Part shown: positions 782 through 11,245 of the stretch, piece after piece
Layout: each line of letters starts with the position of its first letter
Position numbering within the stretch: the first letter of the stretch is position 1
From: a virus
Virus record (IMG/VR): IMGVR_UViG_3300045988_020417
Span: 1 to 35,443 of that record
Length of the DNA stretch: 35,443 nucleotides
Reading direction: 5' to 3' (one strand)
Position numbers and translations under genes: made by a program
The notes under the pieces: model-generated
The model's database searches: none
Seen by the model: only the letters and a program-made list of their open reading frames with translations
What the model was told of the DNA's origin: nothing

Positions 782-1195
782 GTGATAAGGCTAACAATAC
801 CCGGTGAGCCGGTTGCTCAAGGGCGGCCTAGGTTTTCTCGGCGAGGAAAGTATGTAAGCACGTATGATCCTCCCAAATCACGTGGATACAAAGAATACAT
901 CAAGCAGATTGCACGTCAGGAGCTCCATATTGAGCCTCTGACGGGTTCTATCAGGATAAACGTAAAAGTATACAGAGGTATTCAAAAATCCGGTAGCAAG
1001 CTTACTAGGCGGAAAAAACAGGACGGCATCATTAGACCAACTGTTAAGCCGGATACAGACAACTATTACAAAGCGGTGTCTGATGCGCTGACCGGGATTT
1101 TGTGGGAAGACGACAACCAAATAGTCGAAATCCATGTTGGCAAATGGTACAGCGATCAACCACGTGTTGAGATTGAAGCAGAAGAGATCGATTAA
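782..1195 (+). CDS. rusA: Holliday junction resolvase, RusA family
   Basis: GTG start. The N-terminus MIRLTIPGEPVAQGRPRF, plus KPDTDNYYKAVSDAL and WEDDNQIV, is the typical RusA layout. Confidence 0.85.
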   Translation: MIRLTIPGEPVAQGRPRFSRRGKYVSTYDPPKSRGYKEYIKQIARQELHIEPLTGSIRINVKVYRGIQKSGSKLTRRKKQDGIIRPTVKPDTDNYYKAVSDALTGILWEDDNQIVEIHVGKWYSDQPRVEIEAEEID

Positions 1196-2769: not shown

Positions 2770-3207
2770 GTGGACGCAGTAGTGCGAGCAACGAGATATT
2801 TCAGCCCAATTGATCATGACAAAACAATTGAAAACGCCAAAGAGGTCTTGGGGAACTACTGGCATCACAAGCGGATCGCTCAACGTACCAAAATAGCGCT
2901 CAGAAGCCCCGTGATGGACGGCATGCCCAAGTCACCTAGCTATGGCAACAAAGCCGAGGACAAGCTCGTATCGCACGCTGACGAGCTGTACTATATAGCG
3001 TGCTGTGAAGGTGCTATTGAATCTCTGGAATCAGAGAATCATCGGCTTATACTAACAAGCTGTTACTTAACCAAACGATATAGTGACAAGCAAATAATGG
3101 ACAAGCTGTTTTTATCGAAAGCCCAGTATTATCGAACAAAACGTGAAGCGCTAATTGCATTCGCTGAGATTTGCCCATTAGTTGAAATCGAGATGAGACC
3201 TTTGTGA
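2770..3207 (+). CDS. ArpU-family late transcriptional regulator (alternative GTG start at 2782)
   Basis: About 140 aa, upstream of the packaging genes. C-terminal sigma-like segment LSKAQYYRTKREALIAFAE. AAGGAG at 2765..2770 favours GTG 2782 as the start. Confidence 0.65.
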   Translation: MDAVVRATRYFSPIDHDKTIENAKEVLGNYWHHKRIAQRTKIALRSPVMDGMPKSPSYGNKAEDKLVSHADELYYIACCEGAIESLESENHRLILTSCYLTKRYSDKQIMDKLFLSKAQYYRTKREALIAFAEICPLVEIEMRPL

Positions 3208-3316
3208 GACATTTCAACTATTTTTCCGTCATATGATGGTATTGTGCCAAAGGTGAGAAACCTGAGACACCGCATTTTTCCTCCGAGCCTCAGTTATGAT
3301 AAAGCTGTGGCAAGGC

Positions 3317-3372
3317 GTGGCAAATGAGGACTGGCTGAGATAGTCAGGCGGGTTCGATTCCCGCATGCCACA
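3317..3372 (+). ncRNA. tRNA-like element 1 (acceptor stem + T-arm, no D-arm)
   Basis: T-arm GCGGG-TTCGATT-CCCGC (3348..3364). GTGGCA(3317-3322) pairs with TGCCAC(3366-3371). Central hairpin CTGGC-TGAGATA-GTCAG has a non-canonical loop. There is no variable region or D-arm. Confidence 0.5.
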
Positions 3373-3590
3373 TTTCACCCGTGAAGGTCTGTGACGGAGT
3401 AGCTACCGTCACTACGTCCCGATACGCCTACCATGACGATGAGTAGCAGGGTGAACTTATATACCTCCTTAGAGGCTGAGCTTCCCGGTTGAGCGGGACC
3501 AGCCACGGCAGGTCGTGGCACAGTTCTTTGTCCAGTTCAGCGACCGGACACAGCTTGCGATGACCCCATCTGACACTGGGAGAGCGAGCG

Positions 3591-3648
3591 GCAACCGGAG
3601 GATTAACTTTGTGGCCTCTATTATCGGGTTCGACTCCCGGCGGTTGCG
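3591..3648 (+). ncRNA. tRNA-like element 2 (7-bp acceptor stem + T-arm, no D-arm)
   Basis: GCAACCG(3591-3597) pairs perfectly with CGGTTGC(3641-3647). T-arm CGGG-TTCGACT-CCCG (3625..3639). The 26-nt middle part has only a GAGG/CCTC stem. Confidence 0.5.
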
Positions 3649-3652
3649 TTGA

Positions 3653-3685
3653 AGCACTTCATTTTTCGTGAGGTGCTATTTTTAT
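3653..3685 (+). terminator. Intrinsic terminator closing the non-coding region
   Basis: 8-bp stem AGCACTTC(3653-3660)/GAGGTGCT(3670-3677) with one G-U pair and a 9-nt loop, followed by TATTTTTAT. Confidence 0.6.
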
Positions 3686-3708
3686 ACATATTTACGGAGG
3701 AACTCAAC

Positions 3709-4619
3709 TTGAAACAGTCAAAAAATGGAAACGCGGATTACCGTACGTTGGCAACAAGGGCCAAAAGGCAGAAAAGATCATCGACATCTTGCCTGCTGGC
3801 AACCGTCTCATTGACGTATTCGGAGGTGGCAGATCAATTAGCCTGACAGCAGCCTCATCCGGAAAATGGGACGAAGTAGTTTACAATGACAGGCGAAAAA
3901 CGGTTGTTAATCTGTTGAAAGCGTTAATCGAAGACAACCCACACTTCGATTTGATGGATTATGTATATATGGATCGCGAAACGTTTTACAACTGGCGAGA
4001 CAACATGCCTGATTCGATTGAGCGCACGCTTGTGTTGACCATTTGGAGCTTTAGCAACGGCCTAAACAGTTATTTGTGGGGAAAGAAAATCGAAAAAGAA
4101 AAATTGCAACTGACGCGGGCGCTTTTTTGGGGAGACACGGGGACGCAACTTGATGAGCTTTATGCATATGCAAAAAATGAAAACAGTATTTCGGGTAAAT
4201 ACAGGCTGTTTCACAAGTGGCGATTGGAAAAAATGAATATTCGCAGTCGCTATGACGTGCTCCAGCAACTGGCACGGCTGCAACAACTCGAGCGACTCCA
4301 GCAACTCGAGCGACTCCAGCAACTCGAGCGACTCCAGCAACTAAAATATTCAGTGCTTGACTATCGCTCACTCGACATCGGGCCTAGCGACATTGTCTAT
4401 TGTGATCCGCCATATATCGGAACAAGCAAAGACTATGGCGGCTTTGACGATGATGATTTTCAAAGCTGGCTCGCAAAATGTCCGGCAAAGCAAATATATA
4501 TCAGTGAATACACACAGCTGCCTCATACCGAGGTGGCTTTTATTATTGGCAAAAAGATATCTTTTCAAGCAAAAGGCAAGCGGCCGGAAGAACTACTGCT
4601 TAAATATGTAAAAGAATAA
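3709..4619 (+). CDS. N6-adenine DNA methyltransferase (D12/Dam class); N-terminus requires a -1 shift at 3720..3726
   Basis: Motif I DVFGGGRS and motif IV DPPY (YCDPPYIGT). The conserved N-terminal LPYVGNKGQKAEKIIDILP lies in the frame of ORF 3789..4619 but has no in-frame start codon. GGAGG(3696-3700) plus TTG 3709 is in the +1 frame. An A6 run joins the two frames. Confidence 0.75.
4257..4342. repeat. In-frame 18-bp tandem repeat inside the methyltransferase (LQQLER units)
   Basis: Three perfect copies of ctcgagcgactccagcaa at 4287, 4305 and 4323, preceded by about 1.5 degenerate copies. Confidence 0.95.
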
Positions 4620-4635: not shown

Positions 4636-5784
4636 ATGCAATGGACAGATGAACAAATAAGCGACATTAGGAAGCTCGCCTCTGAAGGCTTTACAAGACG
4701 AGAAACAGCCGACAAGCTCGGGATTAGCTATGATGCGCTTCAAGGCAAAGCAAGACGGCTTGGCATCGAGTTCCAAAAACCACTGAAGAATGAATACGAT
4801 TCAGACGGAACACAGTCCAGTGAGACTATCCTGAAAGTCGTAAGGGGCCACAAAATGACGCCTAGAGAGGTTTTGGAAGCCCACGGGTATGATTACACCA
4901 AGTGGGAACTTGTACGTGCCACAAGCAACTTCTGGAAGCAGACGCCTGAAGCAACATTGTATCAAAGCAAGATACAAATCAGGCCGTTGGTCGAAGCAGA
5001 ACAATATGAATCATTGATGAATGACATCATCACACACAAGGAGCCATACCAAGCTAAGGCTCCTATTTTTGTGGAGTCAGATCGCTATTTAGTCATTCCT
5101 GCGTTTGATACACATTTCAACGGTCACACGTTTGATGTCTATGCTGAATCTCTCAAACGTCAGCTAGAGATCATCCAACGCGGCCACTACGCCAAAATAT
5201 TGCTCATTCTGGGCGGTGATCTGGCTCATGTGGATAATATCAACTCGACCACAGCAAAGGGTACACAGCTCGAAACAACCGACTTAGGCGAGACTGTGAA
5301 CGAAATGGAGCAATACTTCGAGACACTGATTGAAGCAATCATTAAGAATGCCAATGAGTGTGAGGTCATGTATGCGCCAGGTAACCACGACCCGTCAGTT
5401 GGATATATGTTTGCGCGTTTATTAAAACGTGCCTACAGCAACCAGCCGAACATCACTTGGGATATATCGCTGAAGCATTACAAAGGCGCAATGCTCGGCC
5501 ATAACTTCATTGGTGCCACTCACGGAGACAAGGGCAAGAACAACTACCTTGCGAAGTATCTTGATGAGTTCGGCTTCATGCTAGGCACAGCACAGAATCG
5601 CGAACTGTTCACGGGGCATCTCCATTCAGAGATGAGCAAAGACCTAGGCGGATTCGTTCAGCGTCAAGTATCAACGCGCAAGCCAACCGATCAGTGGACT
5701 GATGATATTGGCGTGGTTGCTCACAAAACGTTTGAGCTGGTCGAATACAGCGATCATGATACGAGGGCGATCTATTATGTCTAA
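4636..5784 (+). CDS. GcrA-like N-terminal HTH fused to a calcineurin-like metallophosphoesterase domain
   Basis: The N-terminus MQWTDEQISDIRKLASEGFTRRETADKLGISYDALQGKARRLGI resembles the GcrA DNA-binding domain. Phosphoesterase motifs GGDLAH, GNHD, GATHGD and GHLH follow. Confidence 0.6.
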   Translation: MQWTDEQISDIRKLASEGFTRRETADKLGISYDALQGKARRLGIEFQKPLKNEYDSDGTQSSETILKVVRGHKMTPREVLEAHGYDYTKWELVRATSNFWKQTPEATLYQSKIQIRPLVEAEQYESLMNDIITHKEPYQAKAPIFVESDRYLVIPAFDTHFNGHTFDVYAESLKRQLEIIQRGHYAKILLILGGDLAHVDNINSTTAKGTQLETTDLGETVNEMEQYFETLIEAIIKNANECEVMYAPGNHDPSVGYMFARLLKRAYSNQPNITWDISLKHYKGAMLGHNFIGATHGDKGKNNYLAKYLDEFGFMLGTAQNRELFTGHLHSEMSKDLGGFVQRQVSTRKPTDQWTDDIGVVAHKTFELVEYSDHDTRAIYYV

Positions 5785-9530: not shown

Positions 9531-9723
9531 TTTTTCCGGATATGAAGACGTTTATGACATGTATGTAAAGAACCACCATAACTTTGCTGTTAATGGTGGT
9601 TTTATTGTGCATAATTGTGACGCTTTGAGGTATGCGATGGAGCCGTTCACGTTCAGAACTGCCGGCCATTACATGAGCAACCAAGAACGCATTCAGACAA
9701 TCAAAAATTTAGGATTGGGGTGA
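9511..9723 (+). CDS. terL: Intein C-fragment (9511..9615, 35 aa) plus TerL C-extein (9616..9723); start uncertain (GTG 9511 or GTG 9424)
   Basis: (V/M)KIKSISFSGYEDVYDMYVKNHHNFAVNGGFIVHN followed by CDALRYAMEPF. Intein blocks F and G end in HN, then a +1 Cys. The extein carries the conserved terminase D-A-x-R-Y motif. Confidence 0.7.
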   Translation: MKIKSISFSGYEDVYDMYVKNHHNFAVNGGFIVHNCDALRYAMEPFTFRTAGHYMSNQERIQTIKNLGLG

Positions 9724-9724
9724 C

Positions 9725-11245
9725 ATGATGGATCCATTTGAAGAATCAAACTTACTTTACCAAGAAGACATTACGAGCCTCACTCCGGATCGGATCATGA
9801 AGTTCATTTTCCACCATCACGAGTATCAGCTTCCACGGCTGAAGAAGCTCGACCGATACTACAAGGGTCAAAATGAAGGCATTCTAAGCCCACAGTCACG
9901 GCGCATTGAAACCGGCAAGTCAGACCACAGAGCTGTTCACTCGTTCGGCAAGTACATCGCTGATTTCCAGACTGCCTACTCTGTTGGTAATCCAGTGAAC
10001 GTGAAGCTTGATGAAGATGACAAGCGGCTCGACCAGATTACGCGAGTGAACGACCTGGACGCGCTCAACTATGATCTGTTCCTAGATATGACGCGATATG
10101 GGCGTGCTTACGAGTATGTTTACTATGGCAGTGACTCAATCGAGCATTGTGTTCGTCTTGATCCGCTTGATACGTTCGTCATCTACTCGCTTGATGTTGA
10201 TCCGCAGCCAATCATGGCTGTTCGGTACCATTCAGTTGAATTAGTTGACGATAACAACAAGACAATTATCAACATCATCCCCGAAACGTGGACCGCGACA
10301 GAACATGACGTTTACAAGCCGACCACGGTTGGTGGTGCAATGTATTTGGATCGCAGCGAGATCATTCGTGTATTTCCAGTTGTCGAGTATGACAACAACC
10401 GTTTCCGCACTGGTGACTTCGAGCACGTGATCTCACTGATTGACCTGTACGATTCAGCACAGTCTGACACTGCTAACTACATGACTGACCTGAATGATGC
10501 GTTGTTAGTCATCAGCGGTGATATTGACGCTTTATTCAACGGTAGCACGCTTATGAGTGGTGTTGACCCTAACGATCCTGAGGCGATGAAAAAGCTCGCA
10601 CAGGACAAACTAGAGCTTATCAAAGAACAGAAAGACGCCAACATGCTGCTGCTCAAGTCTAGAATGACAGCAACCGGTCAGCAAACGAGCGTTGACGCAA
10701 AGTACATCAACAAGGCATATGACGTCAGTGGCACCGAAGCGTACAAGAAACGCGTTGCCGAAGACATTCATAAGTTCAGCCACACACCAGACCTAACCGA
10801 CAGTAACTTTGCGTCTAACGTGTCTGGTGTTGCGATGAAGTACAAGCTGCTTGGTACTGTCGAATTAGCAGCAATCAAGCGACGCATGTTTGAGAAATCA
10901 CTGTACCAACGATACTCAATCATATATGCACTCGATCAAAGCGTGTCAGGCGGCATGAAAACGGATCCTAATACGATTAAGTTCACGTTCCGCGACAATC
11001 TACCAACAGATGACATCACGCAGATTCAAGCGCTTGTTGCTGCGGGTGCAACACTGCCACAAGAATACTTGTACAGATTTGCACCAGGCGTCACTGATCC
11101 GCAAGAGATTACCGATATGGTTGCCAAGCAACGAGCAGACAGTGATTACAGTGAGGACTTGACAAACAATGACGAAAACACCGAAGGAACGGATCAAAGC
11201 GTTCGCGGACAAACAGGACAAGCAACACCGCCAGATAGCAAGTGA
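9725..11245 (+). CDS. Portal protein (SPP1 gp6-like)
   Basis: 506 aa, immediately after terL and followed by a Mu-F-like minor head protein. The size and acidic C-terminus are typical of portal proteins. Confidence 0.8.
   Translation: MMDPFEESNLLYQEDITSLTPDRIMKFIFHHHEYQLPRLKKLDRYYKGQNEGILSPQSRRIETGKSDHRAVHSFGKYIADFQTAYSVGNPVNVKLDEDDKRLDQITRVNDLDALNYDLFLDMTRYGRAYEYVYYGSDSIEHCVRLDPLDTFVIYSLDVDPQPIMAVRYHSVELVDDNNKTIINIIPETWTATEHDVYKPTTVGGAMYLDRSEIIRVFPVVEYDNNRFRTGDFEHVISLIDLYDSAQSDTANYMTDLNDALLVISGDIDALFNGSTLMSGVDPNDPEAMKKLAQDKLELIKEQKDANMLLLKSRMTATGQQTSVDAKYINKAYDVSGTEAYKKRVAEDIHKFSHTPDLTDSNFASNVSGVAMKYKLLGTVELAAIKRRMFEKSLYQRYSIIYALDQSVSGGMKTDPNTIKFTFRDNLPTDDITQIQALVAAGATLPQEYLYRFAPGVTDPQEITDMVAKQRADSDYSEDLTNNDENTEGTDQSVRGQTGQATPPDSK

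Follow-up and report, generated by a model that had tools for sequence, protein, structure and literature searches.

The gap between a late regulator gene and the first late gene

The subject of this analysis is a gap of about 480 bases between two genes in a 35,443-nt stretch of viral DNA (IMG/VR record IMGVR_UViG_3300045988_020417), which was analysed at its full length and is referred to below as the window. By BLAST, the window is closest to temperate siphophages of the Lacticaseibacillus casei/paracasei/rhamnosus group (Lrm1, Lc-Nu, J-1, PL-1, A2 and BH1), with a patchy identity of 83-97%. The gene on the 5' side of the gap (2770-3207, plus strand) encodes a DUF1492/ArpU-type regulator of the Ltr family (Pfam DUF1492, E = 2.5e-6). 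This protein shows 95-98% identity to its DUF1492/ArpU counterparts in Lrm1, Lc-Nu, J-1 and PL-1, and 37% identity to the ArpU protein of phage phiFL2A; proteins of the Ltr superfamily are late-gene activators (PMC3753634). On the 3' side follow, in order, genes for a D12-class DNA methyltransferase, a metallophosphatase-type protein, a glutaredoxin-like protein, and the small and large terminase subunits.

Every open reading frame (ORF) within 3208-3700 is short (45-65 aa), three lying on the minus strand (3229-3378, 3375-3521 and 3469-3657) and two on the plus strand (3515-3652 and 3649-3846), and none of the five matched a Pfam family. Relatives vary by 1-nt indels in the elements that we call T1 (54, 55 or 56 nt), C1 and T2 (54, 58 or 59 nt), and entire modules are gained or lost among them; thus no reading frame is kept across relatives. 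The region has a G+C content of 54-56%, as against 42-46% in its flanks, and folds better than shuffled sequences, more clearly so on the plus strand (z = -3.1), on which it would be read, than on the minus strand (z = -2.3). Judged from the sequence, the gene-free bases are a genuine non-coding RNA region. An earlier note on this DNA, which had described 3208-3700 as non-coding and rich in RNA structure, is borne out in both respects: the frames are short, unmatched and unconserved, and the plus strand is rich in conserved structure. Its further statement that the ORFs at 3469-3657 and 3649-3846 lack coding signals holds for the first and fails for the 3' part of the second, which has a true ribosome-binding site (RBS; GGAGG, 3696-3700) and a start codon (TTG, 3709), both belonging to the methyltransferase gene. 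The note had also overlooked that the interval opens with ~40 bases of putative promoter and not with RNA.

Putative activator-binding repeats and late promoter

Two direct repeats of the form TGAGAC(C/A)TTT, 11 nt apart, lie on the plus strand at 3194-3214, where they overlap the stop codon of the regulator gene, and are putative activator binding sites. Phages with other regulator alleles carry other 6-7-nt repeats in the same place (TGCAACA, GCGGAC, TGGGAA, GCGAACT and others). There are two to four repeats per locus at 11-nt spacing, and at least eight repeat types precede one invariant -10 element, the last repeat beginning 27-29 nt 5' of it in most alleles. This putative late promoter element (TATGAT GG TATTGT, the second hexamer TGn-extended; 3232-3245, plus strand) was invariant in 64 distinct upstream regions, and we infer a transcription start near 3244-3252. 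Ltr proteins, including ArpU of phiFL2A, have been found in reporter assays and gel shifts to bind 7-nt direct repeats immediately distal to their own genes (PMC3753634). Because the repeats and the invariant -10 fit these published sites, we read them as regulator-binding sites and late promoter; the allele-specific repeats of ~7 nt distal to the regulator gene that characterize an Ltr-dependent late promoter are represented here by the two TGAGAC copies at 3194-3214.

Two further signals were observed nearby. A perfect 10-nt inverted repeat (TAGTTGAAAT / ATTTCAACTA) at 3179-3220 has the two activator repeats between its arms and TTTTT after it. It may act as a weak terminator of the early transcript, and is apparently absent from other alleles read by eye. 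On the minus strand at 3296-3323, in the conserved end of the leader module A described below, TTGCCA-16-TATCAT (10/12) faces the regulator gene; this promoter-like site is the sole consensus match in 2.4 kb, where 3.3 would be expected by chance, and may mean nothing.

Two tRNA-like elements without a D arm

The earlier note had seen two tRNA-like modules in the interval, and both were recovered, each consisting of an acceptor stem, a small hairpin and a canonical T arm. The first, T1 (56 nt; 3317-3372, plus strand), has a 6-bp acceptor stem plus an A.A opposition, discriminator A, a 5-7-bp hairpin in place of the anticodon arm, and a T arm GCGGG UUCGAUU CCCGC; folded alone it forms three helices (z = -3.1). 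The second, T2 (58 nt; 3591-3648, plus strand), has a 7-bp acceptor stem (GCAACCG/CGGUUGC), a 4-bp hairpin, a T arm UCGGG-UUCGACU-CCCGG and discriminator G. Neither has a D arm, and neither encodes CCA. The 35-kb window has exactly two copies of GGGTTCGANTCCC, both within the interval, with none expected.

Set against a canonical tRNA, T1 and T2 have the 7-bp acceptor stem (6 bp + A.A in T1) and the T arm of UUCRANY type, and lack the D arm, the 5-bp anticodon stem with its 7-nt loop (U33, R37) and detectability by ARAGORN or the Rfam tRNA model RF00005. Seven or eight unpaired bases replace the D arm, and the hairpin loops are UGAGAUA and one of 13 nt. Bacterial RNase P, RNase Z and CCA-adding enzyme accept minihelices that consist of an acceptor stem and a T arm; the predicted geometry of acceptor stem on T stem, 6 + 5 bp in T1 and 7 + 5 bp in T2, compares with the ~12-bp coaxial helix of the substrates of these enzymes.

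Most of the 95 distinct gap versions compared below contain T1, and in the others another tRNA-like element substitutes for it. In the T2 family, where the 5' acceptor strand was defined by position alone as the 7 nt after module D, 16 of 18 variants pair all seven of these bases with the 7 nt that follow the T arm. This acceptor stem is preserved through exchanges of the kinds C-G/U-A and G-C/A-U, several T-stem pairs are exchanged as well, and the middle varies from 22 to 64 nt. About 12 tRNA-like families were recognized among the relatives, all with acceptor stem and T arm paired and with the D arm absent or the anticodon arm aberrant or missing. Within the 1.8-kb regions around D, T arms with 5/5 pairs were confined to the leaders. 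In the window, our own tRNA-like pattern also matched A+U-rich antisense sites in genes (9723-9821 and 1110-1158, minus strand), which we judged to be chance matches.

Modules A, C and D and the terminator

Between the putative promoter and T1 lies module A (3246-3316, plus strand), which comprises a GGTG/CACC hairpin at 3252-3271, a U-run, CCUCC at 3280-3284 and a hairpin at 3287-3311. This module of ~70 nt is kept in nearly all 95 versions, and its ATGG/TCAG variants retain the second hairpin with two pairs improved and one broken. The GGTG/CACC pairing had been described before, as had the hairpins at 3391-3412, 3483-3498 and 3502-3519 in the following modules; all four were found again, that at 3391-3412 being a perfect 7-bp stem.

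Directly 3' of T1, C1 (3373-3458, plus strand) is a three-helix junction formed by P1 (3374-3380/3449-3455), P2 (3391-3397/3406-3412) and P3 (3428-3446, loop GACG), with conserved unpaired segments CGUGAAGGUCUG and CUACGUCCCGA. C1 was found in Lacticaseibacillus phages and in many phages of Enterococcus, phiFL2A among them; the Enterococcus copies have a GAAA-capped 2-bp stem in place of the 7-bp P2. In both genera C1 stands directly 3' of a D-armless tRNA-like element, and these elements are unrelated in sequence. When a covariance model was made from Lacticaseibacillus copies only, those from Enterococcus could be aligned to it (~25 bits). The cross-genus alignment was fitted to this model and holds nine different sequences from two clades; pairing is seen in 92.6% of its cells, both sides have changed in 7 of 21 pairs, and the covariation score is 0.40, as against at most 0.07 for slid-partner controls. 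Consensus folding of the Lacticaseibacillus copies only gave no double compensatory change; the signal appeared only with the Enterococcus copies. Since a relaxed pattern retrieved 30 additional IMG/VR loci of which none matched the C1 model, C1 is known from Lacticaseibacillus and Enterococcus phages only. The earlier note had called for a look at covariation among relatives; compensatory changes were found in C1 and the T2 family, and almost none in T1.

C2 (3459-3527, plus strand) is an optional module of three small hairpins (3465-3476, 3483-3498 and 3502-3519) whose folding is not significant (z = -1.2). It holds a remnant similar to the 3' end of T2, is replaced in other versions by sequences with a tRNA-like element, and is partly deleted in one relative (locus L097). 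D (63 nt; 3528-3590, plus strand) is near-invariant, loops included, and is predicted to form two hairpins. The near-invariance extends outside the 21-mer used as a probe (131 copies), and D always starts right after C or after the discriminator of a tRNA-like element. No complement of D was found elsewhere in the window, and a search of the window for complementarity to the leader as a whole, as in an antisense target, gave a single match, an 11-mer at a Shine-Dalgarno-like site.

The interval ends in its own intrinsic terminator (3653-3685, plus strand), as had been noticed: a stem of 10 pairs (3653-3677) is followed by ATTTTTAT, the stem with its U-tract (AUUUUUAU) gives z = -5.3, and the position is kept in relatives. 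In the ~25 nt between terminator and RBS no acceptable -35/-10 pair fits.

Relatives share a modular plan

We retrieved relatives by an exact 21-mer from the most conserved stretch, which lies in D. This gave 119 IMG/VR loci and seven genome loci, which reduced to the 95 distinct gap versions. Their common order is repeats, -10, A, tRNA-like element, optional insert, D, optional cargo, terminator, RBS and first late gene, the last of which differs among phages. The insert between tRNA-like element and D is C (155 nt here) or others of 215-230 nt; the cargo slot after D holds 0-900 nt, being occupied by T2 here and by true tRNAs or nothing in relatives. The borders between cassettes fall at the termini of tRNA-like elements. 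Measured from the -10 through the terminator, the span is 232 nt in seven relatives, 444 nt here and 1149 nt at most. As the parts can be removed or swapped one by one and the leader varies from 232 to 1149 nt, a single co-folding RNA is very unlikely, and no long-range helices are kept among the relatives' leaders.

In 28 phages with the downstream exonuclease gene in common, mean divergence of the core (A + T1 + D) is 5.2%, an estimate somewhat lowered by the 21-mer retrieval, whereas the exonuclease gene of the same phages diverges by 27.6% at four-fold degenerate sites and 14% at codon positions 1+2. At the level of sequence comparison, then, the leader shows itself to be non-coding, modular and under purifying selection, with the top half of the tRNA structure kept and with promoter and terminator signals present.

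True tRNAs occupy the same slots in PLE3, Lrm1, Lc-Nu, phiEf11 and phig1e. A common 73-nt tRNA was observed in Lrm1 (locus L003, 2037-2109), Lc-Nu (L004, 1882-1954) and Lbab1 (L001, 3338-3410); it has normal D and T arms and an 8-nt anticodon loop (UCAUCAGG), and ARAGORN reports it as Met(cat) or 'undetermined'. Lbab1 (MT758689) is a virulent Herelleviridae myophage of L. casei, and at 1824-2740 it carries the large RNA ROOL, an odd 112-nt 'tRNA-Ser' and then a copy of C-D. The copy, equivalent to 3351-3589 of the window (T1 3' end + C + D), is 95% identical and lies ~130 nt downstream of ROOL. The presence of modules C-D in Lbab1 and in temperate phages therefore points to exchange between temperate and virulent phages of one host. 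A leader with module D was also seen on contig CALNBT010000079 (locus L126), binned as 'uncultured Prevotella' and most likely a mis-binned Lacticaseibacillus prophage.

Searches for known RNA families

Rfam was searched with the whole window at the gathering score and with 3100-3800 at E <= 10; at the gathering score no family of any kind matched the interval. The earlier note had suggested a large ornate RNA of the ROOL or GOLLD class, and neither was found: ROOL (RF03087; gathering score 99.1 bits; ~580 nt, folded into multistem junctions and pseudoknots) had no match in the window or in 3100-3800, and GOLLD (RF01998, with its conserved 3' domain) had no covariance-model match at the gathering score or at E <= 10. 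The negative result for ROOL is meaningful, because the same Rfam search detects ROOL in Lbab1 at 201.5 bits. The hint was not empty, as a copy of C-D adjoins ROOL in that phage. In the cargo slot of 12 long-leader relatives an Rfam search for ROOL returned tRNAs only, and the phiFL2A leader at E <= 5 yielded nothing but one tRNA. Of the families that the check covered, introns, T-box and tRNA were likewise without a match at E <= 10, and what the gap yielded at that level was sub-threshold matches of tRNA shape together with noise (mir-73, Plastid-ycf2, SpF41 and Pseudomon-groES).

ARAGORN called no tRNA or tmRNA in the interval in its standard, mitochondrial and tmRNA modes. At an 80% threshold it produced two forced, poor cloverleaves, which we rejected. 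For tmRNA, ARAGORN -m was empty and Rfam aligned just a 17-nt T arm (14.3 bits). T1 and T2 had no RF00005 match at E <= 10. Against the mascRNA-menRNA model (RF01684; threshold 42.5 bits) T2 scored 26.0 and T1 17.6 bits, a likeness in shape only. A search of the literature for these elements, or for transcript maps of these phages, returned nothing relevant. Taken singly, the parts are of familiar kinds: tRNA-like elements, an island of phage tRNAs, and a terminator-ended late leader. The combination of conserved non-decoding mini-tRNAs, C1 and D in an Ltr-controlled late leader was not found in Rfam or in the literature searched.

The same plan behind other ArpU/RinA-type regulators

The same plan is seen behind ArpU/RinA-type regulators in Enterococcus, Streptococcus, Limosilactobacillus and Staphylococcus phages, and a double -10 hexamer follows the repeats in LR2, phiFL2A, 315.4, SM1 and 80alpha as well. 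In phiFL2A three copies of TTGGCGG are followed by ~750 nt that lack ORFs and hold a tRNA-like element, C1 and an odd tRNA; a terminator and the terminase gene terS come next. The phiEf11 leader holds a tRNA-Asn, and that of L. plantarum phage phig1e a tRNA-Tyr and a tRNA-Ile. In L. reuteri phage LR2 CCTTATTATGGTATTGT is identical. Streptococcus pyogenes 315.4 has several mini tRNA-like elements, one of them just an acceptor stem and a T arm, and S. mitis SM1 has a ~95-nt leader and terminator only, with no cassette. Over the tRNA-like elements of 315.4 (locus L132, 2236-3210) the record annotates 'hypothetical proteins' SpyM3_1237-1239, and the records of A2, J-1, PL-1 and phiAT3 place 'hypothetical protein' ORFs over tRNA-like-rich leaders; all are probably spurious.

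The rinA-terS gap of staphylococcal phage 80alpha (locus L184, 1222-1407) has two copies of TGGCAGT, 27 nt, TATTAT-GA-TAGTGT, ~85 nt and a strong terminator. A functional terminator between rinA and terS has been reported for 80alpha and phi11 (PMC3152322). We observed that the published late 5' end of 80alpha, mapped by RACE (a G, 24 nt before terS), falls ~18 nt past the U-tract of this terminator and that no sigma-A promoter precedes it.

The methyltransferase gene and its surroundings

The start of the D12-class methyltransferase gene (3696-3728, plus strand) consists of the RBS and the TTG codon given above. The frame shifts after codon 4 by a 1-nt deletion, TCA-AAAAATGG here corresponding to TCAGAAAAATGG in the alignment with ORF46 of Lc-Nu, and Pfam MethyltransfD12 matches frame 0 from 3720. 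Only Lc-Nu and R24.1 among the relatives have the methyltransferase gene, and the aligned length in R24.1 equals that in Lc-Nu, a comparison of length and not of letters. The gene could be a pseudogene, could restart internally (TTG 3789), or the shift could be a sequencing error. Within it, at 4260-4342, an 18-nt unit (CTCCAGCAACTCGAGCGA) is repeated in tandem 4.6 times and encodes (LERLQQ)n; the Lc-Nu version is different and shorter. The next gene (4636-5784) encodes a 382-aa protein with an N-terminal GcrA-like domain (E = 1.3e-6) and a metallophosphatase domain, called 'DNA repair exonuclease' in other records.

A proposed processed leader of the late operon

We consider it somewhat more probable than not that the interval is the control region of an activator-dependent late operon, made up of promoter, leader and terminator, and that the leader is processed into small RNAs. 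The DUF1492/ArpU-type activator would bind the pair of TGAGAC repeats that overlaps the stop codon of its gene and switch on the promoter whose -10 lies at 3232-3245. The transcript would begin with a non-coding leader of ~440 nt ending at the terminator, just 5' of the first late gene. This leader may be seen as a chain of cassettes resembling a small tRNA island (A, T1, C1/C2, D and T2), in which T1 and T2 would keep just the acceptor stem and T arm, the tRNA 'top half' recognized by RNase P, RNase Z and CCA-adding enzyme. RNase P would cut 5' of T1 and T2; RNase Z, because no CCA is encoded, would cut past their discriminators. Late in infection the cuts would set free A, T1, C, D and T2 as individual small RNAs, no longer joined to any read-through late mRNA, while the terminator would limit or gate transcription into the late genes. 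Cleavage of the leader by host tRNA-maturation enzymes and gating of late-gene entry by the terminator are probable; the start of transcription, the cleavages, the gating and the roles of the released RNAs are what we infer, and the released RNAs may act as decoys or protein-binding RNAs.

Several observations weigh against this reading. The RinA-dependent 5' end in 80alpha and phi11 lies 23-24 nt before terS, past the terminator, and was judged to be a true start (PMC3152322); if transcription began past the terminator here too, the array would be an early-transcript trailer or a separate unit and not a late leader. We favour a start beside the repeats and a transcribed leader, and regard a start after the terminator as possible and as the main risk to the reading. 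Module A folded alone gives only z = -0.5, and A, C2 and D fold no better than shuffled sequences. T1, being too conserved, is nearly without covariation, retains its A.A mismatch at acceptor pair 7, and in 7 of 33 variants has a C.A in the T stem. The contrast in divergence is inflated to some extent by the way relatives were retrieved, and conservation at a junction of gene modules could owe something to recombination instead of RNA function. No transcript, end-mapping or cleavage data for this phage group were found in the literature searched.

Alternative explanations

One alternative, which we think distinctly unlikely, moves the function in trans: the tRNA look-alikes would be decoys or sponges for host proteins that read the top half of a tRNA (tRNA-directed defence toxins acting on the acceptor end, or maturation and modification enzymes), with C1 and D as further protein-binding RNAs. 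Selection for acceptor stem and T arm with loss of the decoding parts in ~12 families would fit, as would the conservation in sequence, beyond structure, of D and of the unpaired parts of C1, and the 95% identity of the C-D block between temperate siphophages and a virulent myophage is what a host-specific benefit predicts. However, no defence or partner protein was identified, the same evidence fits plain processing signals equally well, and many relatives do without T2 and C.

Equally doubtful, in our view, is a cis-acting device like PR'-tR' of phage lambda, in which only polymerase from the activator's promoter, modified by the activator or by the leader RNA, would pass the terminator, with the tRNA-like cassettes as passengers. 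Ltr proteins are not known to have antitermination activity, which counts against such a device; it would also leave the strong selection on A, T1 and D unexplained, and no antiterminator pairing alternative to the terminator stem was seen. In its favour, the terminator stands directly before the first late gene and is kept from SM1, with its ~95-nt leader, to this phage, and the second -10-like hexamer could be a sigma-dependent pause site. Data from 80alpha point the same way: its terminator stops read-through from a foreign promoter, yet RinA-dependent RNA reaches terS, and the DNA that RinA requires lies over 155 bp upstream of that RNA's mapped 5' end, a distance that the authors left unexplained (PMC3152322).

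It is quite improbable that the interval is merely a decaying tRNA island, with T1 and T2 as pseudogenes, the rest as functionless debris, and similarity among phages due to recent descent and recombination at the early/late border. Intact tRNAs in the same slots of relatives, a 71-nt form in the T2 family that still has a D arm, the resemblance of the C2 remnant to the 3' end of T2, and the free gain and loss of cassettes are all as expected of such an island; debris would not be expected to evolve ~5 times more slowly in its core than neighbouring synonymous sites, or to show compensatory changes that preserve the stems of T2 and, across genera, the helices of C1. Nor does it account for the unrelated D-armless tRNA-like element that precedes C1 in Enterococcus phages.

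The earlier note's own proposal of one large ornate RNA, of the ROOL/GOLLD kind or of a new such class, fares much worse and strikes us as very improbable indeed. The region is long, ORF-free, G+C-rich and better folded than shuffles, tRNA-like sequences lie inside it as they sometimes do in GOLLD, and a homologous block sits next to ROOL in Lbab1; but ROOL and GOLLD gave no match at E <= 10 in a search whose positive control worked, relatives manage with any subset of the parts, down to 232 nt, in many combinations of separable cassettes, and long-range helices are not conserved. Weakest of all is a small protein encoded in the interval, for although five ORFs of 45-65 aa are present and GenBank records of A2, J-1, PL-1, phiAT3 and 315.4 annotate hypothetical proteins on the homologous stretch, the ORFs have no RBS and no Pfam match, and their frames are broken in close relatives by 1-nt indels and module loss.

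We put forward a broader conjecture as tentative and rather unlikely: the late operons of all Firmicutes phages with ArpU/RinA-type regulators would begin with a transcribed, terminator-ended leader, their 'activators' would be Q-like and linked to antitermination, and the leaders of Lacticaseibacillus and Enterococcus phages would serve as a production line of new processed small RNAs (non-decoding mini-tRNAs, C1 and D) acting on host tRNA-handling or defence proteins. If true, this would explain why in 80alpha the RinA site lies 155 bp away from the mapped 5' end.

A stretch left blank, or given spurious 'hypothetical proteins', in the records of well-studied phages of dairy and probiotic strains now has a concrete anatomy. 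The late operons with ArpU/RinA-type regulators share a plan of repeats, promoter, leader and terminator, and the leader is a preferred site of phage tRNAs and of their non-decoding look-alikes. At least two RNA candidates, C1 with its cross-genus covariation and D, are new to Rfam. Should the mini-tRNAs prove to be processed, or to serve as decoys, they would add a new kind to the small RNAs of phages, and the cassette borders could aid the engineering of phage expression.

Comparison with known systems

ROOL and GOLLD resemble the present interval in being non-coding RNAs of Lactobacillales phages and prophages that often stand beside tRNAs; they differ in that neither matches it in sequence or structure, and in that the interval is modular and divisible and not one fold of 580-800 nt. 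The mascRNA of MALAT1 and its MEN-beta counterpart (RF01684) share with T1 and T2 a fold of ~56-58 nt with acceptor stem and T arm intact, inside a longer non-coding transcript. This family is the best Rfam match of both elements, and mascRNA is excised by RNase P and RNase Z; however, it is eukaryotic, the scores are sub-threshold, there is no common descent, and processing of T1 and T2 is a prediction.

In the tRNA cluster of phage T4, tRNAs are co-transcribed with the stable 'species 1 and 2' RNAs. Phage tRNA islands of this type are like the leader in having head-to-tail tRNA-shaped units and other small RNAs on one transcript, which here is predicted. They differ in that the units here cannot decode, having no D arm and no 7-nt anticodon loop with U33 and R37, and are missed by tRNA finders.

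The lambda-type arrangement of PR', 6S RNA and tR' with Q antitermination, which includes the small RNA StxS made by early termination (PMC7547250), offers the likeness of a promoter after the late regulator, a short non-coding transcript and a terminator before the late genes. The regulator families are unrelated, Ltr proteins are known only as activators, and the lambda leader has no tRNA-like units; the layout alone matches PR'-tR', and antitermination at this leader is a conjecture by analogy.

A further likeness is to the Ltr late promoters themselves, those of RinA in 80alpha and phi11 and of ArpU in phiFL2A, which have 7-nt repeats 11 nt apart after the regulator gene, a -10 ~27 nt further on, and a non-coding stretch with a terminator before the first late gene. 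The two published studies (PMC3152322, PMC3753634) treated this stretch as promoter DNA and described no RNA leader, tRNA-like elements or conserved RNA modules in it, whereas here it is ~440 nt long and full of them.

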